A stretch of DNA of 40,000 nt from Cyanobacteria bacterium P01_G01_bin.39 (GTDB lineage Bacteria > Cyanobacteriota > Cyanobacteriia > Cyanobacteriales > Xenococcaceae). The stretch covers positions 4,643 to 44,642 of the forward strand of contig JBCDDK010000008.1 in the NCBI GenBank assembly GCA_039180345.1, in the 5' to 3' direction. A program made the position numbers and the translations under genes. Below the pieces are notes generated by a model. That model did no database searches. It was not told the origin of the DNA and saw only the letters and a list, made by a program, of their open reading frames with translations. The first letter of the stretch is position 1, and each line of letters begins with the position of its first letter. Below are positions 11,829-37,634 of this stretch, piece after piece.

Positions 11829-11836
11829 ATAATAAT

Positions 11837-19244: not shown

Positions 19245-19367
19245 CTTTAGATAAATAAGTGAGATAGTGCTTCATCATTACACATTCAGCAATTCCCTCT
19301 TAATTTAGGCGTTGGTAAATCAAGGTATGAAAATAAAATTCATTTGCTTGATACACATTTTTCTTAA

Positions 19368-19416: not shown

Positions 19417-19567
19417 ATAGAAACACTTTATACGTCATACATCAAATCACCAACGCCTTAATTTTTAATTTCAACTAGTTTCTACCTCTGCGCGCCTAAC
19501 TTAGACAACTTTCTGGGCGCCATATTTTATAGTACGCGCCAATGCTGACAACTTACCCAAAATAAAC

Positions 19568-20653: not shown

Positions 20654-20737
20654 ATAATAATCAAATTTCCTTAATCCTGCTTTAACCAAGGACACACTGT
20701 CTTTAATCGGTAGCACCTCACCATGTAAAATCTGAGT

Positions 20738-22039
20738 TTGAATACTAAAGGCATGACTTCATTACCCAATTTGCGAGAAGAGCAGCAACACAGTCCCGAT
20801 AGTCAGCGCATTTTGATTTTTGAGTTATCTGTTGGTGGTCATTATCCAGAATATATTGCTCATTTAGTGAGCTTCTGGTGTGAACATAAACTATCAGGTT
20901 GCTTAAATATTGTGGTCGTGCCTGAATTTTTTCAGCGACATCGAGATGTGGTGGCGATCGCTGAACTTAACCAAGCGGATAACGTTAAGTTTATGCCACT
21001 AACGCCAACAGAGCGTTCGGGTCTCAAATCCTATGGTTCAGCTATTAAACGTAATCTAAGAGCCTGGCAGGAATTTAACTTAATAAATAAGTATGCCAGA
21101 AAATTGCAGGCTAGCCATGTTTTTCTGCCTTACCTCGATACGAGGATGCTACCCTTGGCTTTAGGCAGAAGTCTACCCTGCCCCTTTTCTGGTATTTATT
21201 TTCGTCCTACTTTCCACTACCCCAGTTTTGACTCTGGTAATCTGTCTTGGAAAGAAAGGCTACAGCATATTAGAGAAAAAGTAATTTTATCGAGAGTTTT
21301 ACGACAAAAGCAGCTTAAGACTCTTTATAGTCTCGATCCTTTAGCGGTAGAGCAGATTAATCGCCTGGCTCAAGTCCCTAAAGCCAAACCTTCAGCCGAC
21401 CCAGTCCAAACATATCCTGACTCTGACGTAAATTTAGCGGCACTAAAGTCAAAGTTAGGAATTGACCCCTCGCGCCAGGTGCATCTTCTGTTTGGCAACT
21501 TGAATAAGCGTAAAGGTCTAGAACAGGTATTAACCGCGATCGCCTTGATGCGGACTAAAACCGTGCAAAAGCTCTGTCTACTTTTGGTTGGTTCGATGTC
21601 TGAAGAAAATTATCGCAAGTTTCAATTACAAAAAACACAGCTTACTAAATCGCAACCCGTTGAGATCATCGATCACAATCAATATGTTCCTGAACCCGAT
21701 ATTCAAAATTACTTTGCATTAGCTGACGTAATTCTGGCTCCCTACCAACGGCATGTAGGCATGAGTGGAATTTTAAACCGCGCAGCAGTAGCCAGAAAGC
21801 CTGTGTTATCTACTGATTACGGTTTGATGGGAGAAATTACTCGTCGCTATCAGCTCGGTTTGACAGTCGACTCGAGTAATCCTCAGCAGATTGCTCAAGG
21901 ATTAAGTAAATTTTTAGAGACATCTACCTCACAGGATTGCAGCCACCCCAAGATGGCTGCTTTTGCCAGTCAAAATTCAGTTACCAAGTTTACCACTACT
22001 ATTTTCCAAGACTTAGGATTTACCAGTTGGCAAAAATAG
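20738..22039 (+). CDS. glycosyltransferase-like protein, paralog B of the diverged pair (partner at 3555-4826)
   Basis: Shares the same blocks as the 3555 gene: ELSVGGHYPEYIAHL, RNLRAWQEF, SGIYFRP, NKRKGL, APYQRHVGMSGIL, ARKPVL and YGLMGEITRRYQLG. The ORF-track start is TTG 20738, with ATG 20753 as an alternative. Confidence 0.6.
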   Translation: MNTKGMTSLPNLREEQQHSPDSQRILIFELSVGGHYPEYIAHLVSFWCEHKLSGCLNIVVVPEFFQRHRDVVAIAELNQADNVKFMPLTPTERSGLKSYGSAIKRNLRAWQEFNLINKYARKLQASHVFLPYLDTRMLPLALGRSLPCPFSGIYFRPTFHYPSFDSGNLSWKERLQHIREKVILSRVLRQKQLKTLYSLDPLAVEQINRLAQVPKAKPSADPVQTYPDSDVNLAALKSKLGIDPSRQVHLLFGNLNKRKGLEQVLTAIALMRTKTVQKLCLLLVGSMSEENYRKFQLQKTQLTKSQPVEIIDHNQYVPEPDIQNYFALADVILAPYQRHVGMSGILNRAAVARKPVLSTDYGLMGEITRRYQLGLTVDSSNPQQIAQGLSKFLETSTSQDCSHPKMAAFASQNSVTKFTTTIFQDLGFTSWQK

Positions 22040-22085
22040 TGATTTTATATCTAACATACTGTGTTAAATCTTTTTAATTACACTT

Positions 22086-25073
22086 TTAATTGCGCTCATT
22101 AACTTGAGCTTTGTCTAAGCAAATTTTTAATTTTTCTGCCAGAATTGGTGATTTCATAATAGAGGTATGGTTTCCAGGAACTTCATAGATTTCCATTCCT
22201 CCTGCTGCCAAATCTCCCCAACCAAGTTTGGGATCATTGTAAAAACCAGGAGGGCGATCGCTAGCCCGAAATAAAATAACTCGATCAGAGTAGACTGATG
22301 GCATGTAATTTCGCTTCGCCATGATATTAGCTTCTACAACTTGTTGTAGTGCTTCTGGTATCTCACCTGTGTCATTAATGATATCAGTAGTACTTTGGTC
22401 ACTGCCAGACAAGCCCCATAAAAATACATTAGTGTAAAAACCGCTAGCAAAATGTTTTAAAAGAAAGATTGCTAGAGAGTTAATCCGCTTTTCTAGAGAA
22501 CTAAGATTGTGAGAGACACTCTTGTATTGAGCAAATCTGATTTGAAAGATACTTTGCATCTTATGTTGGTTAATTTCTCGGTCTTCGTCAAAAACCTTTT
22601 GAACAATGCCCAAGCTCTCTAAAATCTTAGTCGAAGTCTGTTTGAGTCCCAATTGTCTCAAATTAGAGACAAGTTTTTGGGATAAAAGGCTCGGTTTACG
22701 CAGAGAATTAAATATTACGTACTTGAGGACAGATAATAATCTCGGTAGGGGTGGCAATATTTTATAGTAGTTTGGACCACTGCTATCAAACAAAGCCAGC
22801 AAAGCTACTTTCTGTCCTCGAGTCTGGAGGAGTTGGGCTATTTCCCAGGCTGTGGCGCCTCCAGTGGATAAACCAGCTAAAAAATAAGGACCATTAGGCT
22901 GGAGGCTACGTATTTGGGCAAGATAATAATCTGCCATATCCTTAACATCATTAAAAGGGGCGTATTTCCCATCTAAACCTCTTGGTTGTAAACCATAAAC
23001 TGGTTGGTCTACACCCAGAGCAAATGCTAAATCACGATAAACAAGAAGGTTACCACCTCCTGCATGGATATAAAATAGCGGAGGTTTACTGCCATTTGGT
23101 TGAATCGGCACTAAACTTTCCCAAGGAGATAGCCATTTTTCAGAGCGGATAATTTGGGCTATTTCCGCCACAGTCCCTGACTGAAAGAGTGTAGCTAGAG
23201 GTAGGTTTTTACCAAACTGCTTTTCTATTTGAGCAAATAGAGATACAGCCTGTAGGGAGTTTCCCCCCAAGTCAAAGAAATTATCTTTGACTCCAATAGG
23301 TTGAATACCTAGAACTTCTGACCAAATTTCGGTTAAGTGCGATTCCAATTGATCTTGGGGAACAACATAAGTACTAGATGGTTCTTGCCTAGTGTTATCT
23401 GGAGCAGGAAGAGCGAGGCGGTTGACTTTTCCATTGGGCAACAAGGGTAGGGTGTCTAGGATCACAAAAGCAGCAGGCATCATGTAATCGGGAAGTCTCT
23501 GCTTAAGGAAGTGCCGTAATTGGGCAACTGTAAGGTTCGATTCTGGGTTGGCAACTACATAGGCTACTAAGCGCTTTTGTCCTGGTTTGTCTTCGCGAAT
23601 CAAAACTACTGCCCCTTGGACAAGGTTATGCTGTCGCAGTTGATTTTCTATATCTCCTAATTCGACTCGAATGCCTCTGATTTTCACCAAATCGTCTTTA
23701 CGACCTCTAAGTTGAAAATTCCCATCATTCAACAGTCGCGCTACGTCTCCTGTCTTGTAAATCAAATCATGGGGATCGTCACTAAACGGGTTGGAAACAA
23801 ACACCTCTTTCGTCAATTCGGGCTGATTGTAATATCCAAGAGTCTTATAGGGAGTCCTAATATAAAGCTCACCAAAAACTCCGCGAGGACATAGATTTCC
23901 ATACCGATCCAAAATTACCGCCCTTGCCCCTTTAATTGGCTTACCAATGGGAATAAAGCCTCGCTCTAGATCAGATTCTTTTACTTGATGATAAAACTTC
24001 ACCATCGTAGTTTCGGTGGCACCATACAGATTGACCAGTTTGATCCGATTACTGTAGACTTTCCAAAAGTTTTCAACATCAGATACAGGCAAGGTTTCGC
24101 CAGACATCAAAATATAGTTGAGAGAATTCAACTTTTCCCCGTCTAGCTCTCTGTTAGTAAAAGTCGCAAACAAAGATGGTACACAATGAATCAAATTAAT
24201 CTGATTACTATCAATCCAATCAATTAATAGTTTTGTCTCCATTCTTGCTGTCAGTTCAGGAGAAATACAAATGGTTCCTCCTGAACAAAGAGGTACAAAA
24301 ATATCTCTTAAAAAGGCATCAAATGTAGGGCTAGTAAACTGGCTAAAACGCCATCCAGCAGTAATATTAAAAGTTTCTATTTCCCATTTTATAAAGTGAG
24401 AAACGCCTTTGAGATTTCCGACAATTCCCTTTGGTTTCCCTGTAGAACCAGATGTATAATAAATGTACGAACTCTGCTCTAGATCAACTGAGACTGATGG
24501 CTTTTCGGAACTAAATTTTGAGAGAGATTTACTAATGGGAATTAGATTTGCTTCAAACTGATTTGATTGCCAAGTCTCTTCAATATTGATAATCTTACTA
24601 TTCTGTTGATGATCACGGTATATTTGAGCTATTAGACTGCTGAATTTAGATTGAGTAATAAAGCAGTCTGGAGAAACATCATCAACAATTTGACACAACC
24701 GTTCTTCAGGAAAACTAGCATCGAGAGGGACAAAGACGCAACCAGCTTTCCATATTGCGATCAGCGAAATTATCATTTCGCTTCTATCATCGAGAATTAC
24801 CGCAATTTTTGACCCCTTAGCTATTTGGTTGCCAATTAAGCAATTTGCTAATCTATTAGTTCTATCATTAAGCTGGCTGTAGGATATTTGTTGATTATTC
24901 CACTCAATTGCTGTTTGTTCTTTGAAAGAATAGCAGGTTTGATTCAATATGTTTAATATTCCATCATCGTTGATGGCAGATATGTCAATTTGCCTTTCAG
25001 TTTTTATTGCTGAATCTAAGGAAAATTGGCTTTGAATCAGGGAAGTATTATGTTGCGAACGTTCATTACTCAT
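22086..25073 (-). CDS. NRPS termination module: A-PCP-TE, with no C or E domain
   Basis: A domain, about nt 23409-24941: A1 SYSQLN, A2 WKAGCVFVPLD, A3 YIYYTSGSTGKPKG, A4 FDAF, A5 NLYGATETT, A7 YKTGD, A8 GRKDDLVKIRGIRVELGDIE, A10 NGKVNR. PCP, about nt 23139-23351: FFDLGGNSLQAV. TE, about nt 22119-23096: GLSTGG (Ser736), LFDSS (Asp763), PGNHTS (His969). Confidence 0.95.
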   Translation of the reverse strand: MSNERSQHNTSLIQSQFSLDSAIKTERQIDISAINDDGILNILNQTCYSFKEQTAIEWNNQQISYSQLNDRTNRLANCLIGNQIAKGSKIAVILDDRSEMIISLIAIWKAGCVFVPLDASFPEERLCQIVDDVSPDCFITQSKFSSLIAQIYRDHQQNSKIINIEETWQSNQFEANLIPISKSLSKFSSEKPSVSVDLEQSSYIYYTSGSTGKPKGIVGNLKGVSHFIKWEIETFNITAGWRFSQFTSPTFDAFLRDIFVPLCSGGTICISPELTARMETKLLIDWIDSNQINLIHCVPSLFATFTNRELDGEKLNSLNYILMSGETLPVSDVENFWKVYSNRIKLVNLYGATETTMVKFYHQVKESDLERGFIPIGKPIKGARAVILDRYGNLCPRGVFGELYIRTPYKTLGYYNQPELTKEVFVSNPFSDDPHDLIYKTGDVARLLNDGNFQLRGRKDDLVKIRGIRVELGDIENQLRQHNLVQGAVVLIREDKPGQKRLVAYVVANPESNLTVAQLRHFLKQRLPDYMMPAAFVILDTLPLLPNGKVNRLALPAPDNTRQEPSSTYVVPQDQLESHLTEIWSEVLGIQPIGVKDNFFDLGGNSLQAVSLFAQIEKQFGKNLPLATLFQSGTVAEIAQIIRSEKWLSPWESLVPIQPNGSKPPLFYIHAGGGNLLVYRDLAFALGVDQPVYGLQPRGLDGKYAPFNDVKDMADYYLAQIRSLQPNGPYFLAGLSTGGATAWEIAQLLQTRGQKVALLALFDSSGPNYYKILPPLPRLLSVLKYVIFNSLRKPSLLSQKLVSNLRQLGLKQTSTKILESLGIVQKVFDEDREINQHKMQSIFQIRFAQYKSVSHNLSSLEKRINSLAIFLLKHFASGFYTNVFLWGLSGSDQSTTDIINDTGEIPEALQQVVEANIMAKRNYMPSVYSDRVILFRASDRPPGFYNDPKLGWGDLAAGGMEIYEVPGNHTSIMKSPILAEKLKICLDKAQVNERN

Positions 25074-25776
25074 TAACCAACCTCTGAAAATCTCTTGCTA
25101 TTGTTAATAAAGGATCTATAAAGTTGTAATTTAGATTATTTTGTTCTGATTTAATTAAATACTTGGTTATTAAGTGAAATTCAGTACAGCCAGCGATCAT
25201 TCCCTCAACTTGGTATTTCTGAGTCAAGGTATCTAGCAACTTTAAATAATCGAGAGTAGAATTGTCAAAGTTTTTAATTTTTATTTGATAAATTAACTGA
25301 TGAATTAAATTCTGATCCTCTTCATCTGGTAGTTCTATATATTGACTGGCCAAACTCCATAACTGGTGATTTTGGAAGATTCCCCCTTGGCATGTTCCCT
25401 TGGTGCATAACAACAGATATCGTTTTTGATTAGTTAACACTTCTTTAAAGATTACATCTATTAAAGATATAACTTTTTTTCTTAAATGAATTGGTATTTT
25501 GGGCATAAAATAGTGTATCGTTATGCAAGAAATTGCTATTTTGCTAACGCCTAGCTGGACAAGATGAGATAAAGCTTTTATTAGATGCTCGAGCAAGATC
25601 TCATCATTACCGCTAGTGACTGCTTTTGTTCGGTCGGGAAATGTTGGATCGGAAAACAGAATACATGCTGGTAAATCTTGCTCAAGATCAGAAAAGTTAA
25701 ATTCGTAAATTGTTTGCAGGAACTCAGTGGATGCTAAAGGTCCCATTCCACCTAAAATACCTAATAATTTCGTCAT
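25066..25776 (-). CDS. aspartate/glutamate racemase family protein (McyF-like role inferred)
   Basis: LGILGGMGPLAST at the N-terminus. Two candidate catalytic cysteines lie in AISCITIH and IAGCTEF. Size is 236 aa. Its stop overlaps the NRPS start by 8 nt (ATGAGTAA). Confidence 0.8.
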   Translation of the reverse strand: MTKLLGILGGMGPLASTEFLQTIYEFNFSDLEQDLPACILFSDPTFPDRTKAVTSGNDEILLEHLIKALSHLVQLGVSKIAISCITIHYFMPKIPIHLRKKVISLIDVIFKEVLTNQKRYLLLCTKGTCQGGIFQNHQLWSLASQYIELPDEEDQNLIHQLIYQIKIKNFDNSTLDYLKLLDTLTQKYQVEGMIAGCTEFHLITKYLIKSEQNNLNYNFIDPLLTIARDFQRLVNE

Positions 25777-25821
25777 AAATTTATCTATTTTTTTAGTACT
25801 TAAAAATTAGATTTGGATCAT

Positions 25822-27444
25822 TTAGCAAACTTCATTTTTGGCAAAAGCTATTCCATCTAAGGGGTCATTAAAATTACCTATCAATTCTTCTTTATCACTG
25901 CTCGTTAAAAGAGACAAACGCGAGATACATTTTGCTGGATTAGCAACAATATCTGTGATCAAGGTCTGAAAATTTTTGAGCATTCGGGTAATAGTATCAG
26001 ATTCAAAAAGATCGATATTGTAGGTCATACTACCTTGGAGATATTTCCCATTATCTAAAAAGGTTAATATTAAATCGAAATCACCTCCTCGCCGTTCCAA
26101 TGCCATATAGTCAAGAACTATTTCTTTGCGGGCGTTTTCTAATGACTTGTTTTCACTTACGCGAGATTGATCCCAAACCAACATTGCCTGGAACAATGGC
26201 GGTCTGCTGGGGTCGCGTTCTAGTTGCAATTTTTCCACTAGTAAGGGAAATGGGAACTCTTGATGATCTAATGCTTCAAGTAAAGCTTGACGAACTTGAT
26301 GGAGTAATTCTTCAAATGTAGGATCACCTGCTAGATTCACCCTTAGAACAACTGGATTAACAAAATAACCGATGATGTTTTCTAATTTTGGATCTGTTCT
26401 TCCTGACATTGGACACCCAATCAACAGTTCCTCTTGAGAAGTATAACGTAGTAATAGAACTTGAAATGCCGCTAAAACAATGGCATAGGTTGTCGTCCCG
26501 GTTTTTTTCGCCAGCTCTCTGATTTCCCTAGAAACTTCCTGGCTTAAAATACAATGTTGCTTGTCACTGTTGTAAGTTTGCCTAGCTGGTCGAGGTTTAT
26601 CCGTTGGCAAATTTAGTACTGGCAATTCTCCAGATAATTTGTGTCGCCAGTAATCCCAATGCTGATTGATTTCTGTACCAGCAGCCAGCTTTTTTTGCTC
26701 TCGATGCACATAATCTCGATACTGAAAATTTAGTGTGGGTAGAGATATTGCACTGCTTTCTTTCATGCTTTTACAAAGCAGACAAAGCTCATCCATCAGA
26801 ATATCTATAGACCATAAATCCATTGCAATGTGATGACCCACTAGCAATAAAATTTTCTCTCTCTCTACTGAAAAGTCTGTCTCGGAATATCGATTTAATA
26901 GGTGTGCTCTGATAATTTCTCCTTCACCGAGGTTGAAAGGACGGTCTGCATTTTCTGCCAACCAATTATCTAAATAATCTTGAGAAGTATCATCAGTCTC
27001 TGTGACTATAAATTGGGCTTGCCAATCTTGGCAGGTTTGCTGAACGAATTGTCCGTTTTCAGTTTTATAAGCAGTGCGAAGGCTGGGATGGCGCTCAACC
27101 ATTTTATTAAATGCTTGTTCTAAGATTGAAACATCCAAGTCGGGATTAAGTCGCACTGCATACATCATGTTATAAACACTGCTTTCGGGTTCAAGTTGAT
27201 AAAAAAACCATAAAGCTTGTTGTCCTAATGACAAGGGATAAGGTTTGCTTGAGTTGGCATCTTGGCGTAATACATCCAAGATTTCTGATTTGTATTGCTT
27301 AATTTGGCTAAAGACTTGAGGAGTCAAAGTCTCTTTTGGACCCCGATAACGCAGCTTGTCTTCTTCCGCCCACAATTCTATTCCTTGGGTTCGAAGATCT
27401 TGAATAAAATCAACTATATTTGGGTCATTAAATGTATTAACCAT
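25822..27444 (-). CDS. stand-alone NRPS condensation domain with an N-terminal TubC-type docking domain
   Basis: aa 8-58, IVDFIQDLRTQGIELWAEEDKLRYRGPKETLTPQVFSQIKQYKSEILDVL, matches the TubC_N/beta-hairpin docking pattern. C1 is PLSLGQQALWF. C3 is HHIAMDLWS (aa 204-212, nt 26809-26835). There is no A or PCP domain in this protein. Confidence 0.9.
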   Translation of the reverse strand: MVNTFNDPNIVDFIQDLRTQGIELWAEEDKLRYRGPKETLTPQVFSQIKQYKSEILDVLRQDANSSKPYPLSLGQQALWFFYQLEPESSVYNMMYAVRLNPDLDVSILEQAFNKMVERHPSLRTAYKTENGQFVQQTCQDWQAQFIVTETDDTSQDYLDNWLAENADRPFNLGEGEIIRAHLLNRYSETDFSVEREKILLLVGHHIAMDLWSIDILMDELCLLCKSMKESSAISLPTLNFQYRDYVHREQKKLAAGTEINQHWDYWRHKLSGELPVLNLPTDKPRPARQTYNSDKQHCILSQEVSREIRELAKKTGTTTYAIVLAAFQVLLLRYTSQEELLIGCPMSGRTDPKLENIIGYFVNPVVLRVNLAGDPTFEELLHQVRQALLEALDHQEFPFPLLVEKLQLERDPSRPPLFQAMLVWDQSRVSENKSLENARKEIVLDYMALERRGGDFDLILTFLDNGKYLQGSMTYNIDLFESDTITRMLKNFQTLITDIVANPAKCISRLSLLTSSDKEELIGNFNDPLDGIAFAKNEVC

Positions 27445-27546
27445 TGATTAACATCTCTTGATTATTGGTTCGGATGAATTTATACATTCGATTGATTCTG
27501 GGAAAATTATCTGAGTCTAACTCTTATAATTACTAATTGTCTTCTA

Positions 27547-30500
27547 CTATAATTCTCCTTCCAACCAATTCTGATCATCTTGCAAAGATAAATTTGACTC
27601 AACTGTTGGTGAAACAGAATTCTCGGTCAGTTGTTCGCCACAAAGCTTTGCCAAACTAGCAACTGTAATCTCATTCATAAATTGACTCATTAGTAAATTG
27701 ACTCCTAAATCGGTTTTGAATAAGTTCCTCAACTGAACAGCCATTAAGGAGTCTAATCCCATGGTAGTCAAGGGCTGCTGGATATCCAGCTGTTTAGCAT
27801 TAATTCCCAGAGCTTGAGAAACCCTCTCCTGAACATAGATAACCAGGAGTGATTCACGCTCGCTTGAGTTAGCCTGTTTGATATCCTTAACTGATACTTG
27901 TTTATCTTGTATGGGTTGCTCCTGACCAATTAATTCTTCAAAAAATGGCGGAATATTACCTGATGAAAACTTCTGGCTAAACTTTGACCAGTCAATTGGG
28001 ACTACTCCTACTTGGGCAGAAACATTGAACAAGAGCCGCTCTAATGCTTGTAGTGCCAACTCGGGAACTATCGGTTCCATACCCTGAATTTTGATCTGAT
28101 TATCAGCTGCCATCCCGATGCTTGCCCACCCCCCCCAGTTGATAGTTAATCCAGGAAGTCCTTGAGTTTGACGGTAATGCGTCAAGGTATCGAGAAAAGT
28201 ATTGGCAGCGACATAATTGGTTTGACCTAGAGAACCTAGTAAAGATGCTGTCGAAGAGAACATTACAAAAAATTCTAATGATTTTTCTTTGGTCAAGCTA
28301 TGTAAATTCCAAGCTCCCTGCACTTTTGGAGCCATGACCCGAGCAAATCTTGACCAGTCAAGTTGTTGCAAAACCCCGTCATCTAAAATTCCCGCAGCGT
28401 GAATAATACCTCCCAAGGGTGAAACAGAGCTATCTACGTCCCTTATTACTTTAGCAATTTGTTCTTCTTGAGTAACATCTGCTTGAGCTACTACTACCTG
28501 CACCCCCGCATTTTCTAGCTCGGTTATTTTTTCCTTGGTGTTTTTACTAGGTTCACTACGCCCTAGTAAAACTAAATGCTTTGCTCCTCGCTGCGCCATC
28601 CAACCAGCGATGAATAAACCTAAACCTTTTAAACCACCAGTAATTAAATAGCTTTTTGATTCATGGAATAGATTTTTAGACTTAACCTTAGTTTTTTCTA
28701 GGTCTTTCCTAACTATTCTTGGCACATAACGAGTATTGTTACGAAAAGCGACTCGATCCTCTGAATCGTTTGACCAAATTTCTGCCAACAATACTGGGGC
28801 AAGATCATTCTTCAATTCTGGGTCTAGGTCTACCGTGACGCAATTTAGTTCAGGGTGTTCTAAAGAAATTACCTTTCCCATCCCCCATAAGGGAGCTTGG
28901 GATAAACCAGGAAGATTGCCTTCTCTGACTACTGCTTGGGCGCCTTTGGTCACTAAGCAGAGAGAACAAGAGTCGGATAATCCACTATTAACTAAATATT
29001 GAACGAGATTTAAAGTACTGCGACAACTTAATACGGAAGCATCTTTTAAATCTTCTACTGTCATGACTTGGGCATCTACAGTATCTAAACTCCACAGATG
29101 AACTATGCCGATAGAAGAAGTGTTGTCTAGATCCAAAGCTTTCCCTAGTTGCTCTAAATCCTCAGCAGAATTTGGCTCAATTGCAAACTCTGAATCGGAT
29201 ATCTGCTGGTATTGCTGACCTGAAAAAACCAACCGAGAATCTTTTCCCTCAGCTTTAAGCAAAGTCGCTAAATTGCATCCAATTCCTTTATTATCAGCTA
29301 AAATCAGCCAAGAATCGGGTTGGACTTGACTCCCTTGAGCTGACATGGGTTTGGCTGACCACTGAACTTCGTAAAACCAATCTTCAATACTGCTGGCTTT
29401 CTGGACTTCTAGTTCAGTTTTGCCTAAAGTTTCTAAGAGCTTAGGGAGTAACTGCAACTCTTGTGGGTCAAATTCTCCTGTTTTTGCTAATTTATCAACT
29501 AAGCTGCTTACCCCTCCTGGGGATAGTTGTAATAAATTATCTTTTGCCTCGACCCAGTAACGCTTTCTCTCAAAAGGATAGGTGGGTAGGGAAAGACGAT
29601 TTCGCTTTTCCTGTTGATAAAATGCCGACCAGTCTACTTCTACTCCTGCTTGCCATAACTGTCCTAAAGTATTGAGTATAAATGCTTGATCGGAAGTGTC
29701 TTCTTTGGGATGACGCAGGGAAGATAAAACAACTTGCTCATCTGCTTGCTTGAGTGCCAAGGACTTAAGCATCTTTCCTGGACCCACTTCTAAGAGAATA
29801 CAATCTTTTTGAGACAGTAGTTCTTTTGCTCCCGCAGCAAAACGAACCTCCGAGCGCAGATGTTTTGCCCAATAACTGGGATTGGTTGCTGACTCAGGAG
29901 TAACCCAAGTACCACTCACGTTGGAAATGTAGGGGATTTGAGGTGGATTTAGAGCAACTTGACTAACTCGTTCGGTAAAGGTTGCCAAAATCGGTTCCAT
30001 CATCGAGGAATGGAAGGCATGGGAAGTATGCAAGGGACGACAATCGATTTCTTTGTTAGTTAACTGTTGCTCAAATGTATCTATTGCTTCATGAGTTCCT
30101 GATACTACGCAACTACCTGGGGCGTTGAGTACTGCTAGATCTAGATTGTCATTGAGTAAGGTTTTAACTTCAGCTTCGGGTAAGAATACTGACAACATCG
30201 ACCCGCTAGGAAGTTTTTGCATCAACTGACCACGTTCAGCAACTAGCATCAAGGCATCTTCTAAGGAAAATACTCCAGCGATGCAGGCAGCTACATATTC
30301 ACCAATACTATGACCAATGGCTGCTTTTGGCTTAATGCCCCATGCCATCCAGAGACGAGCCGTGGCATATTCAATGATAAATAAAGCGGGTTGAGTAAAG
30401 CGAGTTTCGGTTAACTGTTGGGTTGCTGACTCGATCTTGTCCGTTTCTGGATAGAGTATGTCCCGCAAATCTAAGCCTAATCTGGGTTTTAGTAGTTCAC

Positions 30501-32187
30501 AACAGTAATCGACCTGTTCTCGGAAGATGGGTTCTTCCTGATATAATTCTTGGCCCATGTTGACATACTGCGCTCCCTGTCCAGAAAACATAAAGGCAAC
30601 TGTCCGTTTTTTAGATTCTGTCGGTTTGAGAAAGTCTGTATTTTGGAGAGCAGTAACAGCTTCAGCCCCATTTTGACAAACTACCACTTGCCGATATTTA
30701 AAGCCTCGACGACCTACTTGTAGAGTGTACGCTACGTCTCCTAAGTTTAAATCGACATGTTGTTCTAGGTGCTGTGCTAGATTTTGGGCAGCAGTTACTA
30801 AAGCAGATTCGCTTTTTGCCGAAAGCAGTAGTAATTGCCAAGGTCTAGAGGGGCTTGATGGTTCTCTAACGGGGGCTTCTTCTAAAATCACATGAGCATT
30901 AGTTCCCCCAATACCAAAGGAACTAACACCAGCCCTACGGGGTACGCCGTTAGTATGCCAAGGTTGCAGCTCAGTATTGACATAAAAGGGGCTGCTCGTA
31001 AAATTTATCTGGGGATTGGGTTGCTGGTAATTAATGCTGGGGGGAATTTCTTGATGTTTCAGAGCCAACACCGTCTTAATTAAGCTGATCGCACCAGAAG
31101 CACGGTTGAGATGACCCATGTTACCCTTGACCGAACCGATCGCACAATATCTTGTCTTGTCAGTACTGCTGCGGAAAACCTTAGTCAAAGCAGCAATTTC
31201 AATGGGATCTCCCATCGTCGTCCCTGTACCGTGGTTTTCGATATAGCTAATGGTCTCAGGGTCGATTTCGGCGATTTCTTGAGCTTCAGCGATCGCATCT
31301 GCCTGACCGTCTACACTGGGGGCGGTGTAGCCTACTTTTAAGGAACCATCATTGTTAATCGCCGAACCCTTAATTACTGCTAGAATTGGATCGCGATCGG
31401 CGATCGCATCTTCTAAGCGTTTCAGCACTACAATACCAACACCACTACCAAAAATTGTGCCTTTGGCATCTGCATCAAAGGGACGACAATGACCATCTGG
31501 AGATGCCACACTATCTTCTTGATGGAAATATCCTGCTGTTTGAGGCAGGGAAATCGTAGCGCCCCCCGCTAATGCCATGTCACATTCGCGATCAAGTAAT
31601 CCTTGACAAGCTATATGCACCGAAACTAAGGAAGTGGAACAGGCAGTGTTAATACATACGGAAGGGCCAGTTAAATTTAGCTTATAAGAAATCCGAGTCG
31701 GCACAAAGTCCTTATCATTGCCAATTTCAATTTGCAAATCCCCAGTTGATTTGATGAAATTGGGGTTGGTTAGGAGGTTTTGATGCAAATAAGTACTCAG
31801 ACTCGATCCTACATAGACTCCAATTCTGCCATCGTAGTTTTCTGAGTCCTGTCCCGCACTCTCTAATGCGCCCCAGGCACATTCTAATAACAAGCGATGT
31901 TGGGGATCTGTTGCTTGGGCTTCCCGAGGAGAGATGCCAAAAAAATCAGCATCAAATAAATCGACATCTGATAGTATCGCCCCTGCCTTAACATAATTGG
32001 GGTCTGCTACAGTTTCACTAGGTACGCCAGCCGCAATTAATTCTTCATCGCTAAAGAAGGTGATCGATTCTACGCCGTTGCGCAGATTGTGCCAAAATTC
32101 TGCAACATTATTAGCACCAGGGAAACGACCATCCATGCCGATAATCGCAATCCCTTCTTCATTTTGTGAATCTAGATAATCACTCAT
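27547..32187 (-). CDS. type I PKS module: KS-AT-KR-ACP
   Basis: KS, nt ~30880-32154: DGRFPGA, TACSTS (Cys183), HGTGT, GNMGH. AT, nt ~29653-30600: GHSIGE (Ser627) and HAFH, the malonyl-type motif. KR, nt ~28123-29370: TGGLKGLG, LDD at 1268-1270 (B-type), Tyr1325. ACP, nt ~27643-27855: GLDSL (Ser1480). There is no DH motif between AT and KR. The acidic C-terminal tail is DDQNWLEGEL. Confidence 0.95.
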   Translation of the reverse strand: MSDYLDSQNEEGIAIIGMDGRFPGANNVAEFWHNLRNGVESITFFSDEELIAAGVPSETVADPNYVKAGAILSDVDLFDADFFGISPREAQATDPQHRLLLECAWGALESAGQDSENYDGRIGVYVGSSLSTYLHQNLLTNPNFIKSTGDLQIEIGNDKDFVPTRISYKLNLTGPSVCINTACSTSLVSVHIACQGLLDRECDMALAGGATISLPQTAGYFHQEDSVASPDGHCRPFDADAKGTIFGSGVGIVVLKRLEDAIADRDPILAVIKGSAINNDGSLKVGYTAPSVDGQADAIAEAQEIAEIDPETISYIENHGTGTTMGDPIEIAALTKVFRSSTDKTRYCAIGSVKGNMGHLNRASGAISLIKTVLALKHQEIPPSINYQQPNPQINFTSSPFYVNTELQPWHTNGVPRRAGVSSFGIGGTNAHVILEEAPVREPSSPSRPWQLLLLSAKSESALVTAAQNLAQHLEQHVDLNLGDVAYTLQVGRRGFKYRQVVVCQNGAEAVTALQNTDFLKPTESKKRTVAFMFSGQGAQYVNMGQELYQEEPIFREQVDYCCELLKPRLGLDLRDILYPETDKIESATQQLTETRFTQPALFIIEYATARLWMAWGIKPKAAIGHSIGEYVAACIAGVFSLEDALMLVAERGQLMQKLPSGSMLSVFLPEAEVKTLLNDNLDLAVLNAPGSCVVSGTHEAIDTFEQQLTNKEIDCRPLHTSHAFHSSMMEPILATFTERVSQVALNPPQIPYISNVSGTWVTPESATNPSYWAKHLRSEVRFAAGAKELLSQKDCILLEVGPGKMLKSLALKQADEQVVLSSLRHPKEDTSDQAFILNTLGQLWQAGVEVDWSAFYQQEKRNRLSLPTYPFERKRYWVEAKDNLLQLSPGGVSSLVDKLAKTGEFDPQELQLLPKLLETLGKTELEVQKASSIEDWFYEVQWSAKPMSAQGSQVQPDSWLILADNKGIGCNLATLLKAEGKDSRLVFSGQQYQQISDSEFAIEPNSAEDLEQLGKALDLDNTSSIGIVHLWSLDTVDAQVMTVEDLKDASVLSCRSTLNLVQYLVNSGLSDSCSLCLVTKGAQAVVREGNLPGLSQAPLWGMGKVISLEHPELNCVTVDLDPELKNDLAPVLLAEIWSNDSEDRVAFRNNTRYVPRIVRKDLEKTKVKSKNLFHESKSYLITGGLKGLGLFIAGWMAQRGAKHLVLLGRSEPSKNTKEKITELENAGVQVVVAQADVTQEEQIAKVIRDVDSSVSPLGGIIHAAGILDDGVLQQLDWSRFARVMAPKVQGAWNLHSLTKEKSLEFFVMFSSTASLLGSLGQTNYVAANTFLDTLTHYRQTQGLPGLTINWGGWASIGMAADNQIKIQGMEPIVPELALQALERLLFNVSAQVGVVPIDWSKFSQKFSSGNIPPFFEELIGQEQPIQDKQVSVKDIKQANSSERESLLVIYVQERVSQALGINAKQLDIQQPLTTMGLDSLMAVQLRNLFKTDLGVNLLMSQFMNEITVASLAKLCGEQLTENSVSPTVESNLSLQDDQNWLEGEL

Positions 32188-35100
32188 TAGACTTTCCCTC
32201 CTCTGCGTTGTCGACGTTGTTTTCTAGCATCTTTTTTGCTGCGCACTCGGTCTGTAACATCTTGAAAACCTGGAGCTGATGATGATTTTTGCTCTCCCTG
32301 TGACTGAGTTAAATATTTTGCCAGAGCATCAATAGTAGGATATTGATATAAATCCACTAGGGAAATCTGAGGATAATTCTCTTGTAATTTGCTCAATATT
32401 TGAACCATTAATAAGGATGTACCCCCCAACTCGAAGAAGTTATCCTGGATACCTATTTGCTCTATGGTCAATACTTCCTTCCAGATTGTCACCAGTGATT
32501 CTTCTACCTGGTTCCCCGCAGCAACAAACTGAGATGCTAATTCCAGAGGACGAACTCGACGTTTATTAGACTCAATCAATTGTAGAATCTGCTTTGGCTC
32601 ATATAGCTCTGTAGCAATGCGAGTCATGGTTTGAATCTGTTTTTGACCTCGACTTACTGTTGCCGTTGGCTTTTGAACTCCTGGGGTAGAATCAACTGAC
32701 TTTGCAGTTTCTGGATTATAAGTAAGCTCGGCAGCTATTGCGCTAGGTAGTTTAAAGAGCCAAGATGATTCTATTTTTTCTTTAACGACACCAGCTAGAT
32801 TTTCTAGAAAATTTAGTGCGGGTTGATTTTTGGGTGTGGAAGCATATGCCAGATCTATGTACTCAAGCCCCCGATCTTGGGCTATGGTACCAAGGCTAGC
32901 TAACATCTGATGTTCGATGCCTTTACCTAAAGCGCGGCAGCTAAGGAGAAAAGTATCAACTTTTAGTACCTTGTCTGATACCCCGAATAACATTGCCCCT
33001 ACTAGACCATAATCACCAAAGCGATCGCTAACTTTAACAGTAAGACATTCTATTCCTGAATCGAGCAATTGTTGAATTTCAGTTTCACTCCGTCTAATGG
33101 TAGTAAAATTGAACTGGTTTGTCCGCTGGGTCAATTGTGCCACTCTAGCTAATTGCTGCACTGACATCGGGGCAATATTAACCTGTAGGTTTAAACCAGC
33201 CAAGAAATCGCTAAAGGTTATTGTCTCCTGACGGAAGCTTTCTCGTTTGACATTCTGCTGATAAAGAGCGGTTCTTTGTTTATCTTCTGCTGTATTTTGT
33301 AGGTGATCGAATGCCCAGATATGCTCTAGAAAGTTGGGAATTTTATCTATCTGTTCAGGAAGTTGTAAAGTTAGAACTTGAGGACAGTTGGCTTGCACTT
33401 CGGCACATTCGAGGGGATTATCATCAATAAAGATAAAGCTGTCTAACCCTAAGTTTAGTTCCTGTGCCAGAGATTTAATATTCTCTGATTTTGCTTGCCA
33501 GTTAATACGCCACTGAACTAGATGTCGTCGTTGTAGAGGCATTTGATGGTAGTCAAATACTTGCCAAACATCTGCCTCATTATTCTTACTACACAAACAT
33601 AAGAGCATTCCTGCCTCAGATTGTGCCACCATGAATTCCTGTAGCTTTTTATAAGCTGGATCTATGGTTACTCCCTCTGCGCCATCTTCCCCACAGATTC
33701 CGTTCCATAAAGTGCGATCGCAATCTAAGACAATCACTTTGTAAGGAAGGGTTTTAAGAACGTTTATTTTACGAGCGATCACTGTTCCCAAAGCGGTATA
33801 GTATTCTGGGGTATAGGGAACACTACCTGATTTATCTCCACGAGGATCGTAGTAATCTAGGACAGGATATTTGGTAGTTAATTCTGAAACTGGTAATAAA
33901 TGTATGCCGTTAACCTGATCTAGATAGGAACCTAAGAGATTTTCCATCTCTCCATAAAAACTGCTACGTTCTGGATCTGAATTTACCTCCGAGGAAGCAG
34001 GACACAGACAAACTAGATAGGGGGTTGCAGTAGATTCGGCAGAGGCGATTAATGCTTGCCCTAAATCTTTGATATTTTCTTTTAGGCTAGCTTTATTTTC
34101 CTTAGAGATTGACGACAATACTTGAGCTGAAGTGCCAGGACGGGTTGCATAAATGTTATAAAGACCCGAACCTTGAAGCAAAGTTTCTTCTTCTACAATC
34201 AGTTCAAACCCCTTGTCTTGCAACAGTTGTTTGACTTGTTTAATAATGCTTCCCTCTTGATCGTGAACTTCCACAACCATTTGTTGAATTATCGACCAGT
34301 GATGGTCTTTAATCCCCTGTAGGACTGGCAATTCACTTTTTTCCGCATCTAGCTTGAGTAAATCGATACGTTCAATGTTGTGTTCTTCTATTACGCTCGA
34401 AAGAGTCCGCAATTGAGCTTGGAAGCTTTCTACTTCTAACCTACCTGGCATAAACTCATCAGCAAGTCTTTCTAATTCTGCTCCTTCGCCAGCATTGACC
34501 TGCTGTAACATATTCAGGATTACGGCGCGGATAGCTTGCTCGTCGTCTTCTTTGTCGGCATGAAACCCAGAGAACACCGAAGAGTTAGGATAGAAAGTAA
34601 AGGTTTCTGATTTATCTGACCCTGATAGTCCGCAGTTAAATAAGTTAGCATTCTGACAATACAAGGCTGCATTGCTCTTTAACTTCTCAAAAGCATGGGG
34701 GGCAGGTTCAAAGGAGTAGATAGTTGCGTTAGGACACTGTTGCTGAATAAATAAGGTAAACAAGCCAATATTTGCCCCAATATCCACCACACAAGCATCG
34801 TCATTCAAGACTATATTATGTCTGGCGTAAACCCGATCAACGAATAATTCCTGATAAAGATATTCGGTTTCATATTGATTGAGGTGGGCTACCTCCAGAC
34901 CTTGAGGTAAATTATGAGTCGACAAGTTACCTAAAATTGCTTGCTTTTGTTCAGTGTCAACTATGGGTTTGAGTTGCTTCTTATCCTGTGACCAATCTTC
35001 TAGTCTGAGTAAAATTACATTAACCCCATCTCGATTCTGAGACATCGTACTACTAGGGTTGAGTAACTCTTGAAATATTTGATTATAAGGGGCAAATTCA

Positions 35101-36074
35101 ATTTCGCTCTTAAGATTTAGCTCCTCCATCCAGAAGCTTAAAGAATCCTCAATCGGTTCAGCCGTAAAAGATGCTGCGATCACAATTTTTTGTGTTATTT
35201 GCAGCGAATTTAGCAGTGCCTCTTGACTGGCACGCTCAATTGCTACTCCCTTCAACTCTACTAGGCAATTACCTGCCTCATCCAATAGGTATAAGTCAGC
35301 CAGTAAAATTTTACCTGCCAAATCTGACTCAGGGGAAATTTTGGCATAACTCCAGCAACTAGAGCTAATATCTGGATAGCGATGAACTATCAGCTTCTCT
35401 ATTCCCACTGGTAAATAGGTATCTTCCTTAGTAGCTTCGGGTAAAGCAGCCCACAAAACTTGAAGACAGCTATCTAACAATACTGGATGTAATAAATAGT
35501 TATCTGGTTCAACCAGCTTGCTCAAATCTAACCGAACCTCAGCTAAGGCAGATTTTTCTTGTTGATATAACTTTTCTAATACTTGAAAGCGATCGCCATA
35601 TTGTATATTTCGCTCTCGACAGGTTTGATAAAAATCTGCTATCGATCTGGTTTTAGATTTGGTTAACTCAGCTACTGGATTTACTTGAAAAAACTTTTGC
35701 TGAGATTTGTTAATTATAACTTTTCCTGATGCATATAATGCCTTAGCTGAAGTCTTTCCTTTGTCTTTTCTTAAGCTATAGATATCCCAATCAAATAAAT
35801 TATCTCCCCTTTCCTGAAACTCAATCTGAATAATTTTTACCCCATCTTCTGGCAAAACCAAAGCTTGATGGACAACAAAATCCTCTATACTCAAGTTTTC
35901 CATTTGGAGTAGGGTTTTTCCCTCAGCCAAAACCATTTCTAGATAAGCAGTTGCTGGTATTAAAGCTTGGTTACATACGCGGTGATCAGATAAAAAACCT
36001 GGCGTATCTACTTTAACTTTTATCTGAGATTTAAAAGACATTTCAGCAGAAGAAGACTCTAGTTGTTCAATCAT
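32187..36074 (-). CDS. PKS loading protein: DH - FkbM-family methyltransferase - FkbH-like (HAD-IIIC + acyltransfer) - ACP
   Basis: DH, nt ~35220-36032: H31 in HRVCNQALIP, YGDRF, DSCLQ. MT, nt ~34140-34892: VVDIGANIGLFTL, YSFEPAP, DLLKLDAEKSE. HAD core, nt ~33360-33743: VIVLDCDRTLWNG, FIFIDDNP. Acyltransfer part, nt ~32745-33197: DRFGDYGLVG, LLSCRALGKGIE. ACP, nt ~32310-32522: ELGGTSLL (Ser1220). Its stop shares one base with the next start (TAATG at 32187). Confidence 0.9.
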   Translation of the reverse strand: MIEQLESSSAEMSFKSQIKVKVDTPGFLSDHRVCNQALIPATAYLEMVLAEGKTLLQMENLSIEDFVVHQALVLPEDGVKIIQIEFQERGDNLFDWDIYSLRKDKGKTSAKALYASGKVIINKSQQKFFQVNPVAELTKSKTRSIADFYQTCRERNIQYGDRFQVLEKLYQQEKSALAEVRLDLSKLVEPDNYLLHPVLLDSCLQVLWAALPEATKEDTYLPVGIEKLIVHRYPDISSSCWSYAKISPESDLAGKILLADLYLLDEAGNCLVELKGVAIERASQEALLNSLQITQKIVIAASFTAEPIEDSLSFWMEELNLKSEIEFAPYNQIFQELLNPSSTMSQNRDGVNVILLRLEDWSQDKKQLKPIVDTEQKQAILGNLSTHNLPQGLEVAHLNQYETEYLYQELFVDRVYARHNIVLNDDACVVDIGANIGLFTLFIQQQCPNATIYSFEPAPHAFEKLKSNAALYCQNANLFNCGLSGSDKSETFTFYPNSSVFSGFHADKEDDEQAIRAVILNMLQQVNAGEGAELERLADEFMPGRLEVESFQAQLRTLSSVIEEHNIERIDLLKLDAEKSELPVLQGIKDHHWSIIQQMVVEVHDQEGSIIKQVKQLLQDKGFELIVEEETLLQGSGLYNIYATRPGTSAQVLSSISKENKASLKENIKDLGQALIASAESTATPYLVCLCPASSEVNSDPERSSFYGEMENLLGSYLDQVNGIHLLPVSELTTKYPVLDYYDPRGDKSGSVPYTPEYYTALGTVIARKINVLKTLPYKVIVLDCDRTLWNGICGEDGAEGVTIDPAYKKLQEFMVAQSEAGMLLCLCSKNNEADVWQVFDYHQMPLQRRHLVQWRINWQAKSENIKSLAQELNLGLDSFIFIDDNPLECAEVQANCPQVLTLQLPEQIDKIPNFLEHIWAFDHLQNTAEDKQRTALYQQNVKRESFRQETITFSDFLAGLNLQVNIAPMSVQQLARVAQLTQRTNQFNFTTIRRSETEIQQLLDSGIECLTVKVSDRFGDYGLVGAMLFGVSDKVLKVDTFLLSCRALGKGIEHQMLASLGTIAQDRGLEYIDLAYASTPKNQPALNFLENLAGVVKEKIESSWLFKLPSAIAAELTYNPETAKSVDSTPGVQKPTATVSRGQKQIQTMTRIATELYEPKQILQLIESNKRRVRPLELASQFVAAGNQVEESLVTIWKEVLTIEQIGIQDNFFELGGTSLLMVQILSKLQENYPQISLVDLYQYPTIDALAKYLTQSQGEQKSSSAPGFQDVTDRVRSKKDARKQRRQRRGGKV

Positions 36075-37634
36075 AAATGTTAAGAACTCAAGATTTTTAT
36101 TTCATTCTCTACACCTTATGAAATAAACATACAATAAATAAACTACATGCGTAAAGTATTTTTGTAAATTAATTCCTTCACTCAAAACAGTATTGTCAAT
36201 CTGGCGTTAAGTTTAAGATACGTTTAAAAGTGTGTTGTATTCAACTGTAAGTCTGGCTAGATCTATCCTATGAGCATCTATAATAATCGTAAAACCACGA
36301 AATGTTGATTAATTTACCATTTAGGTGTATTGGTGCAAAAATTAGTTCCTTTAATTGAACGATCTTTCTCATTCCAGACTTCTCTATCTAGTTTGCCTGC
36401 ATGAGGAATGTTGGACGAAACAATAAAATTACCTAAAAATCCCAAGTTTCCGAGTAGTTCCACTTTATTAAATATGAAATAGTTGAGGTGGGGGTTGAGG
36501 ATTCACAAAGGAACTTTTTGGTTTCCCATATATTGAGGAAATACATTTTTCAAGTAGCTATATTTGTTTTGCGTTTTTTTAAGTGGGATACTGATTAATT
36601 TACAGCTGTTATCTATATATATCTATATGTAAATAGCAAATCTATGAATGTTACTAATAGAAATATTTAGAACACTTAAGTCAACCCATTAGTACTGTTT
36701 TGTCAAACTTTTGTTGCGGTATAAATATTGCTTTGAAGATTCTGGAATTATCAGCTAGTGAAAAGCAAAATAAAATTTCCGATGAAGAGGAAGAATATTC
36801 ATTGAAAAATAACATAAATCCTTAGTGTTAAGTAAAACTTGGTCAGAAAAATTTTAAGAATAACGAAGAATAACCTTGACTCTAGATAGCAAAATTATTT
36901 CAAGTATTAAACCTCCTTCAGGAAGCAATATTAAATGTTTCAAAAACAATGCGAATTTGAGTTTGATTATTCCTCCTAACAAATATGTAAATAGATCACA
37001 ATGTCTAATCTATCTATTAATGATGTCTGGGACAACTACATCATACTTCTTTTATAGAGATATAAAACGTTTTGAGGATCTTGGCTTTTTCTTATTTGTT
37101 TATGCTCTTCTATGAGCTGGATATTTTGGCTATTAAATTGTTTATCCTTCAATTCTAAAAATTAAGATTGTTATTCGGCGAGATAAATTTGTAATTTATC
37201 ATGACTATAAATTTTTTCATAGAAAAGAAAATAGTTATACTCAAAATATCAGTAGAGTGACTATAGACCAAAAAATAAGTCACAAAAACAAACAAGTCAC
37301 AGAAGAATATTGTTCTATTGAATCAGGTGTAAAAAGATATAAGTTTGGCGAGCATTTATCCTTACCAGAGAAAAGATGGCTAGTTCAAGAGATCCACAAT
37401 TTCGTCAGAGAAATAGATCCATACAAAACACTGAAGTAACTTTTGTGCAGCATTTACAATAATCATAATTCGAGAAACAATATGAAATCAAAAAACCATA
37501 TTTTAAAGTTTCCATAATTTAGAAGCCTATAAATATTGAAACTAAGAGGGTAATTGACTTTAGGTTTCTAAAGCTTGACTTTTGACTTCGATATGAGGGA
37601 GTGTTGCAATAGGATTCTCTAGTAAACCATAGTC

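Follow-up and report, generated by a model that had tools for sequence, protein, structure and literature searches.

A methyltransferase nested within the FkbH region of a dehydratase-bearing loading module in a cyanobacterial polyketide-peptide operon

INTRODUCTION

In the FkbH enzymes that have been studied, the glyceryl unit passed to a carrier protein is donated by 1,3-bisphosphoglycerate. The subject of this work is a loading protein (hereafter the loader) that combines an FkbH region with a dehydratase (DH), a methyltransferase (MT) and an acyl carrier protein (ACP). It is encoded in Cyanobacteria bacterium P01_G01_bin.39, within a 40,000-nucleotide stretch of contig JBCDDK010000008.1 (positions 4,643 to 44,642), referred to below as the window. 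Among loaders that join a DH to FkbH are BryA of bryostatin, which we take to be a DH-KR-FkbH-ACP loader of the lactate type (KR, ketoreductase), and that of Burkholderia sp. FERM BP-3421, presumably the FR901464 (Fr9) loader. These belong to trans-acyltransferase (trans-AT) systems.

Methylation is found in a second group of loaders. DysB (dysinosin), SuoB (suomilide), AerB (varlaxin) and BslA carry an O-methyltransferase (OMT), FkbH, a peptidyl carrier protein (PCP) and a sulfotransferase (ST), and make 2-O-methyl-3-sulfoglyceric acid (abbreviated Mgs). These proteins have an eight-domain layout in which OMT and FkbH are drawn as a linear pair (PMC6520454, PMC8609519, PMC10143770, PMC13122637). 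No statement that the MT lies inside FkbH was found in these papers, access to which was limited. A third related system is the phm megasynthase (phormidolide, Leptolyngbya), a trans-AT polyketide synthase (PKS), whereas the loader here is cis-AT. The phm megasynthase is reported in a review to have an FkbH-like domain, an O-methyltransferase and dehydratases (PMC7600079). Outside the FkbH family, the O-methylating type II M domains of interrupted adenylation (A) domains carry the S-adenosylmethionine (SAM) motif DxGx(N/H)xG, and KtzH O-methylates Ser (PMC8341866). The only solved structure with both the N-terminal subdomain (N-subdomain) and the HAD core of FkbH is 3SLR, the N-terminal part of the uncharacterised protein BF1531 of Bacteroides fragilis; it has no MT insertion, and the construct ends before the C-terminal acyl-transfer part. 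The literature yielded no paper joining FkbH with methoxyacrylate or an enol ether, nor one on the structure of FkbH.

RESULTS AND DISCUSSION

Domain layout of the loader

The domains of the loader and the other features of the window are collected in Table 1. An earlier annotation made by a model from the letters of the DNA alone (the sequence-only reading) had described a motif-complete DH at the extreme N-terminus and an FkbM-type MT nested in the FkbH region, and had proposed profile searches and structure prediction as checks. Profile hidden Markov models found all three of the families it had named: the PS-DH (PF21089, 3.7e-17; PF14765, 2.1e-32), the FkbM family (PF05050, 1.5e-18, 67.9 bits versus a cut-off of 22.7; TIGR01444, 94.3 bits, cut-off 37.7) and the FkbH-like/HAD-IIIC proteins (TIGR01686, 300.5 bits, cut-off 146.65; TIGR01681, 61.7 bits, cut-off 35.75). 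Both the MT and the FkbH core are members of their families by these cut-offs. There is no match to a KR or SDR domain in the 1295 residues with Pfam or NCBIfam, and none to a sulfotransferase with Pfam.

Table 1. Features of the window. Positions count from the first nucleotide of the window; residue numbers (aa) are those of the loader.
Feature	Position	Strand	Evidence
Loading open reading frame, 1295 aa	32187..36074	-	One reading frame
PS-DH dehydratase, aa 9-288, extreme N-terminus	35211..36050	-	PF21089, PF14765; best PDB matches CurK/CurF/CurJ DH
FkbH N-subdomain part a, aa 294-364, strand-helix-strand-helix-strand, ends ...NVILLRLEDW	34983..35195	-	Aligns with start of MT-less long FkbH; AlphaFold2 model
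FkbM-type SAM O-methyltransferase insert and linkers, ~aa 365-660 (Pfam core aa 429-625)	34095..34982	-	PF05050, TIGR01444, Foldseek 2py6
FkbH N-subdomain part b, aa 661-777, long helix, two strands, helices	33744..34094	-	Contiguous with part a in MT-less homologues; 3SLR alignment
FkbH core, aa 778-1095: HAD-IIIC phosphatase (D784xD786xT, SKN, DDNP) and GNAT-like C-terminal acyl-transfer part (Cys1046)	32790..33743	-	TIGR01686, TIGR01681, Foldseek MDP-1 HAD and GNAT folds
Carrier protein, ACP/PCP-like, GGTS1220, aa 1193-1255	32310..32498	-	PF00550, 1.3e-14
KS-AT-KR-ACP extension module, 1546 aa, no DH	27547..32187	-	Pfam and motifs: active-site Cys, two His, AT HAFH, KR LDD (B-type)
Stand-alone C domain with TubC-type N-terminal docking domain, HHIAMD	25822..27444	-	PF00668, 2.3e-100; PF18563
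Amino-acid racemase, Asp/Glu type	25066..25776	-	PF01177; TIGR00035, 120 bits versus cut-off 93
A-PCP-TE terminating protein, 995 aa	22086..25073	-	Pfam AMP-binding, PP-binding, Thioesterase
Polysaccharide pyruvyl transferase	1439-2599	+	
Sulfotransferase, exopolysaccharide locus	4840-5721	+	
Methyltransferase, exopolysaccharide locus	5787-6662	+	
Pectate-lyase-like protein	13173-15230	+	

The motifs quoted in the sequence-only reading are all present, although its segment numbers were off by one or more residues, the true flanking segments being aa 297-361 and 685-769. The DH carries H31 (in DHRVCNQALIP), P40, Y159-GDRF and LLD201SCLQ205, and so has the PS-DH signature H31/P40, Y159-G160 and D201xxxQ205. 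It matches the CurK DH of curacin (PDB 3kg9) over its whole length (E 4.5e-36), and D201 aligns with the catalytic Asp mutated in 5tz7. The CurK DH likewise reads HxxxNxxxxP, so the replacement of Gly by Asn35 in the loader is a CurK-like trait and no anomaly or defect. The MT motif VVDIGANIGLFTL lies at aa 429-441 and the HAD motif VLDCDRTLWNG at aa 782-792, with SKN and DDNP also present; the acyl-transfer Cys is found in LLSC1046RALGKG.

These features are also well conserved. A search of 5.8 billion proteins gave 393 matches, of which 120 were listed. Across these 120 homologues (39-89% identity) His31, Pro40, Tyr159-Gly160 and Asp201xxxGln205 of the DH are each at least 95% conserved, and the DH is indeed motif-complete. 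Motif I of the MT (the SAM motif DIGANIG) and DLLKLDAEKSE (DLLKxDAEKSE) are conserved in the same set; the MT has the SAM-binding residues whose absence would have told against it. The DxDxT, SKN and DDNP motifs of the HAD part and the cysteine of SCR are conserved as well, with LLSC1046R invariant across the homologue alignment, and the HAD motifs, Cys and carrier protein follow in the order that had been claimed. An identical protein was found only on a 6.3-kb Logan contig (SRR22824324). Among the matches listed, the nearest relative with a name (98%) is an incomplete protein from "Cyanobacteria bacterium J06642_3", and the best loader match in a scan of genome contigs has 63% identity.

The methyltransferase interrupts the FkbH N-subdomain

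The central observation is the position of the MT. A query from which it had been excised (aa 289-375 joined to aa 661-1100, 527 aa in all, aa 376-660 being removed) was compared by tblastn with plasmid records. Long FkbH/HAD-IIIC proteins that have no MT cover 98-99% of this query in one piece at 43-49% identity. The best of these is from Aquisphaera giovannonii (E 3e-163), and others come from Ralstonia solanacearum, Streptomyces and Burkholderia sp. FERM BP-3421; in all four the two halves of the N-subdomain are contiguous. When the intact query is aligned by MAFFT with three MT-less homologues, the loader shows a clean insertion of ~295 aa, which replaces a loop of ~11 residues. In the MT-less proteins the pattern NVxLLRxEDW is followed by this ~11-residue loop and then by the helix that corresponds to the query at about aa 661 (SLKENIKDLG...).

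The predicted structure agrees with this arrangement. An AlphaFold2 model of aa 289-1100, built from an alignment of 68 sequences, has a mean pLDDT of 90.1, with the strands of part a at aa 295-301, 323-327 and 351-356. Its order is strand-helix-strand-helix-strand, the MT excursion, a long helix, two strands, helices and the HAD core. The top Foldseek match of the model in the PDB is 3SLR (E 2.3e-16, TM 0.64 on the target). This alignment has 640 columns for a target of 376 residues, and must therefore bridge the MT insertion. The remaining parts of the model match 2py6 (FkbM), MDP-1-type HAD phosphatases and GNAT folds. At the sequence level, phmmer aligned part a of the MT-excised sequence with 3SLR only insignificantly, while the HAD core was matched. 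The N-subdomain that precedes the HAD core in one piece in 3SLR is present in the loader but split by ~295 aa.

By alignment and model, then, the FkbM-type MT sits inside the N-terminal subdomain of FkbH, between its two halves. That the flanking segments are the halves of a long-FkbH N-subdomain had been the key claim of the sequence-only reading, and the one-piece tblastn matches, the MAFFT insertion and the model with its Foldseek alignment to 3SLR across the insertion agree on it; the flanks align with the N-subdomain of MT-less FkbH proteins and are not ordinary linkers. The nesting was correctly observed and stands well above chance. That the two halves pack as one subdomain is argued from the 3SLR alignment and the homologues rather than from contacts, and should be read as a prediction of the model.

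Recurrence of the nested site

The sequence-only reading had considered a domain-in-domain insertion of this kind architecturally unusual, which does not fit its distribution. A full-length DH-MT-FkbH-ACP arrangement is found in at least 100 of the 120 matches listed (39-89% identity), from cyanobacteria, Ignavibacteriota, Bacteroidota and many metagenomes, and the insertion site recurs in at least 120 homologues. It also recurs in loaders of the OMT-FkbH-PCP-ST type, and the same nested site is seen in homologues P0025, P0026, P0027, P0030, P0090 and P0112 (P numbers denote proteins, and L numbers loci, of this analysis). In a survey of GTDB with one genome per species, 26 of the best 80 loci have the MT nested in FkbH. 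They span many phyla, and include Nostoc, Symploca, Zarconia, Thermodesulfovibrionia, Chloroflexota, Betaproteobacteria, Acidobacteriota, Verrucomicrobiota, Desulfobacteraceae and Acidimicrobiales.

A DH is present in 15-16 of these 26 nested loci and an ST in five, and none has both. The variants that have no DH open directly with part a of the N-subdomain (KQKIVIAATFTSEP...), and their MT lies at the same site. With Na and Nb standing for the two halves, the layout Na-MT-Nb-HAD-ACP-ST-C-A-PCP (C, condensation domain) occurs in loci L010-L014 and L084, with an MT 69-72% identical to that of the loader, and one class of the ST type reads Na-MT-Nb-HAD-PCP-sulfotransferase-C-A-PCP(-E), which matches the eight-domain layout of DysB, SuoB, AerB and BslA. 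Other proteins end in a thioesterase (TE), giving DH-MT-FkbH-ACP-TE (P0013-15, P0024). In the sole TE-fused locus examined (L008, encoding P0015 at 9148-13764) there is no ketosynthase (KS) or other PKS gene nearby.

The nesting is widespread and already in use in loaders of published layout, and has probably been overlooked till now. Its explicit recognition is new, as is the version that bears a DH in a cis-AT setting. Annotation of biosynthetic gene clusters misses the nesting because the usual profiles for FkbH extend over no more than the HAD and Cys parts, and the loader is drawn as a linear "oMT-FkbH".

Comparison with described loaders

The proteins and loci with the layout of DysB, SuoB, AerB and BslA (aeruginosin-type below) share with the loader an FkbM-type MT in the same loop of the N-subdomain, and after it a HAD core, a Cys part and a carrier, DysB and SuoB themselves being compared by layout alone. 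Two such proteins, P0025 and P0026, are 56% identical to the loader over aa 296-1260, and 69-72% identical in the MT alone. The aeruginosin-type loaders have no DH and carry a sulfotransferase after the carrier, whereas the loader here has a DH and no ST. They feed a C-A module of a nonribosomal peptide synthetase (NRPS), in contrast to the KS-AT-KR-ACP gene that follows here. The 3-hydroxyl, sulfated in their case, is predicted to be eliminated in this one.

The trans-AT DH-KR-FkbH-ACP loaders have in common with this protein an FkbH with a long N-subdomain, a carrier and a DH in a single polypeptide, and in both designs a glycerate-derived C3 starter would be reshaped before the first condensation. 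The Burkholderia sp. FERM BP-3421 protein has a MaoC-like DH at aa 10-98, an adh_short (SDR) domain at aa 280-467 and an uninterrupted FkbH from about aa 512. The loader differs from it in having a CurK-like PS-DH, no KR, a nested MT and a cis-AT setting. No KR stands between DH and FkbH, and the DH belongs to another family than that of FERM BP-3421, the one protein with which the family was compared. Two further SDR-annotated matches to the MT-excised query also have a contiguous FkbH. The sequence-only reading had put the MT in the position of the KR. The FERM BP-3421 reductase lies upstream of an intact FkbH and its DH is MaoC-type, so the two positions are not equivalent and this claim is not supported.

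The closest design analogue, on grounds of architecture, is the interrupted A domain. In KtzH (A8-MII-A9) and ColG an O-MT is likewise spliced into a loop of a carrier-loading enzyme, and shares the unusual form D-x-G-x-N-x-G of the SAM motif, DIGANIG here. The host there is an A domain and the substrate the beta-hydroxyl of Ser or Thr, whereas here the host is FkbH and the predicted target the alpha-hydroxyl of glycerate. Among the fetched loci, FkbM-type MTs 41-51% identical to that of the loader interrupt NRPS A domains at 52 places, in the order A core, MT, last ~40 residues of A, PCP. Such A-nested MTs were seen in many loci of Nostoc, Calothrix, Scytonema and Acidobacteriota (L033-L089, e.g. 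L039 8642-11263), in some cases as a tandem pair or spread over several modules of a single protein.

Proposed chemistry and its alternatives

Domain order, nesting, the integrity and conservation of the motifs and gene context are observed, and every chemical step set out here is inferred from them and from analogy. The best explanation, in which moderate confidence seems justified, is that glyceryl-ACP would be methylated on O-2 and that the DH would then eliminate the 3-hydroxyl to give a 2-methoxyacryloyl-ACP starter. In this reading the protein loads a compact PKS/NRPS line of the cis-AT kind. By family membership, its FkbH core would take glyceryl from a phosphoglycerate donor, dephosphorylate it and pass it via Cys1046 to the carrier protein. 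The MT, predicted to occupy a surface loop of the FkbH N-subdomain adjoining the loading site, would methylate the 2-hydroxyl of glyceryl-S-ACP, and the N-terminal CurK-like PS-DH would remove the free 3-hydroxyl together with the alpha-H in an ordinary beta-elimination, giving 2-methoxyacryloyl-S-ACP, the methyl enol ether of pyruvate. The KS-AT(malonyl)-KR(B-type)-ACP protein would extend this to 3-hydroxy-4-methoxypent-4-enoyl-ACP, and the docking C domain would couple the acyl chain to the amino acid on A-PCP-TE, possibly an acidic D-residue supplied by the racemase. Release by the TE would give an N-acyl amino acid, bearing either the N-(3-hydroxy-4-methoxypent-4-enoyl) group or the 4-oxo group formed from it by hydrolysis. 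If this mechanism holds, three activities make up a route to an alpha-methoxy-acryloyl (pyruvate enol ether) starter.

Several observations point this way. Methylation is assigned to O-2 because MTs 69-72% identical occupy the same nested position in loaders with the 2-O-methyl-3-sulfoglycerate layout. A 2-O-methylated glyceryl unit would be an ordinary beta-hydroxy thioester with an alpha proton, and so would suit the DH. That DH and ST never occur together in the 26 nested loci is as expected if both act on the 3-hydroxyl. In L008, where DH-MT-FkbH-ACP-TE has no KS nearby, the DH would have no substrate but the C3 unit. Phormidolide (PhmE) reportedly starts with a bromo-methoxy-diene that is explained via a 2-methoxyacryloyl starter.

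Other points weigh against this scheme. No biochemically characterised DH-containing member was found in the literature, nor was any natural product identified that bears a 3-hydroxy-4-methoxypent-4-enoyl group. An enol ether, being labile to acid, might not persist as such in the final product. The assignment to O-2 would follow from the structure of Mgs and a match of layout, with DysB and SuoB compared by description only. The nearest biochemically characterised relatives of the MT are the type II M domains (KtzH), which methylate the beta (3-) hydroxyl of Ser (PMC8341866); methylation of O-3 in this manner would block dehydration. Finally, the N-terminal DH might serve the next module, whose KR is B-type and which has no DH of its own.

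The alternative that survives best, though it is unlikely, is a starter of plain 2-O-methylglycerate (were the MT to behave as the Ser/Thr O-methylating type II M domains do, it would be 3-O-methylglycerate), with the DH structural or acting elsewhere. An MT-FkbH-ACP unit with no DH is a complete working loader in the aeruginosin-type pathways, and the KtzH-type M domains that share the DxGxNxG motif do methylate a beta-hydroxyl (PMC8341866). Such a starter does not account for a DH with at least 95% conservation of its catalytic His, Asp, Tyr-Gly and Pro over the 120 homologues, for the mutual exclusion of DH and ST in the 26 nested loci, or for the DH that is kept in DH-MT-FkbH-ACP-TE, which in L008, the one locus examined, has no PKS partner nearby. 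Methylation of O-3 in particular is disfavoured by the closer identity of the loader MT to the MTs of ST-type loaders (69-72%) than to the A-nested MTs (about 45%).

Dehydration might instead come first, as the sequence-only reading had proposed: glyceryl-ACP would become enolpyruvoyl-ACP and the MT would trap the enol, with a pyruvoyl-ACP starter if trapping fails. This order appears improbable. It would lead to the same end product as methylation first, and the DH-KR-FkbH loaders of FR901464 and bryostatin are said to dehydrate unmethylated glyceryl-ACP. However, the enol would tautomerise fast to the ketone, and homologous nested MTs would work on a glyceryl-carrier protein without any DH. 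The Fr9-type DH, being MaoC-like and unrelated to PS-DH, makes the analogy weak. Methylation first is preferred because the relatives of the MT that are 69-72% identical belong to 2-O-methylglycerate-type loaders that have no DH at all. Of the earlier proposal, the 2-methoxyacryloyl starter is thus kept as the likeliest product, by inference, and the order of the two steps is reversed.

It is more doubtful still that the N-terminal DH serves the next module, turning the 3-hydroxy chain into a 2-enoyl chain while the starter stays O-methylglycerate: that module has no DH in the window or in any relative with its domains mapped, and the LDD motif found in its KR is the usual one in KR/DH pairs, but a DH at the N-terminus of the preceding protein is not known in cis-AT PKSs, and the DH-MT-FkbH-ACP-TE proteins keep an intact DH, with no KS nearby in L008, the one locus examined. 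C-methylation by the nested MT as in corramycin was also considered and was rejected, the corramycin methylation being assigned to a radical-SAM enzyme.

Implications

If the preferred order of 2-O-methylation and elimination is right, DH-(MT-in-FkbH)-ACP could be a self-contained "2-methoxyacrylate synthase" for a masked pyruvoyl (enol-ether) starter. This wider proposal is tentative, as are the three consequences that belong with it. The synthase would supply a family of compounds, both small N-acyl amino acids and longer hybrids, that extends from cyanobacteria to at least eight further phyla; a stand-alone, TE-fused synthase would also feed polysaccharide loci; and one portable O-MT cassette would have been spliced independently into two unrelated enzymes that load carriers, in the FkbH N-subdomain and in NRPS A domains, which would point to a general rule for "load-and-modify" domains.

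The nesting bears on domain boundaries for engineering, since a cut between "MT" and "FkbH" would split a folded subdomain. It ties FkbH loaders and interrupted A domains together as apparent hosts of the same O-MT cassette, and it suggests elimination by a DH and sulfation by a sulfotransferase as alternative fates of the 3-hydroxyl of glycerate. The cluster is small, with five genes in 14 kb (22086-36074), and is expected to be easy to express.

Variants in other contexts

Several loci show related proteins in other settings. P0077, a 1594-aa DH-MT-FkbH-ACP protein, lies within a polysaccharide locus (L091 10001-14785), and in Aquisphaera an FkbH-ACP-TE protein with no MT stands among glycosyltransferases (L001 5950-8961). 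Decoration of glycans with C3 acids is a possible separate role for stand-alone FkbH proteins in loci that have no PKS. P0090 is FAAL-ACP-C-(MT-in-FkbH)-ACP, the methylated counterpart of a start, FAAL-ACP-C-HAD-T, that has been described in vioprolide and corramycin biosynthesis. On the Ralstonia solanacearum megaplasmid (L003 4576-8115) a C-FkbH-PCP protein without MT adjoins genes for an acyl-CoA dehydrogenase and an ACP.

In loci L018-L027 and L007 (Ignavibacteriota, Acidobacteriota, Verrucomicrobiota and Betaproteobacteria) ~3 kb and an AMP-binding gene separate DH-MT-FkbH-ACP from KS-AT-KR. In L007 (14154-18151), the only such locus with the genes identified, the intervening genes encode a 3-hydroxyacyl-CoA-dehydrogenase-like protein, a small ACP and an acyl-CoA-dehydrogenase-like protein, which we take to be the FkbK/FkbJ/FkbI set of methoxymalonyl-ACP pathways. 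The nested MT in loci of this type might act in the role of FkbG.

The rest of the operon and its neighbourhood

The start codon of the KS-AT-KR-ACP gene overlaps the stop of the loading gene. The HAFH motif of its AT is presumably of the malonyl type. For the protein encoded at 25066..25776, the cysteate racemase model gives 116 bits, below its cut-off. The ten-residue code of the A domain reads DARHLSLMVK and is approximate, having been aligned via a GrsA fragment. Together with the racemase it hints, weakly, at an acidic D-amino acid as the residue on A-PCP-TE.

A cassette of loader, then KS-AT-KR-ACP, then C-A-PCP(-TE) recurs in relatives. L090 (68% identity; 18737-22906) and L092 (56%; 19012-23295) have a fused C-A-PCP-TE and no racemase gene at that place, so the separate C, racemase and A-PCP-TE genes of the window are a split form of a conserved three-module cassette. 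In other relatives the loader and KS-AT-KR-ACP genes are followed by longer NRPS lines. One of these is L004, the contig of P0001, which has the closest full-length orthologue among the matches listed (loader 89% identical). A KS fragment of 130 aa lies among its NRPS genes, and two genes for DDE transposases stand just upstream; together these suggest a recent rearrangement of the cassette there.

Between the loading gene and cysS (36075-37634) lies a 1.5-kb AT-rich stretch of ~32% GC whose longest open reading frame is at most 79 aa. No Rfam match or tRNA was found in the window, this stretch included, and a promoter/terminator scan did no better than on shuffled sequence. On the other side of the operon, a large exopolysaccharide-type locus occupies 158-22039 on the plus strand. 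A functional link between it and the PKS operon was rejected, as the two are convergent and the locus is missing from relatives. In addition to the genes in Table 1 it encodes several glycosyltransferases (GT1, GT2 and GT8) and a VanZ/lectin-like protein, and across the first 8 kb the GC content is lower, at 31-36%.

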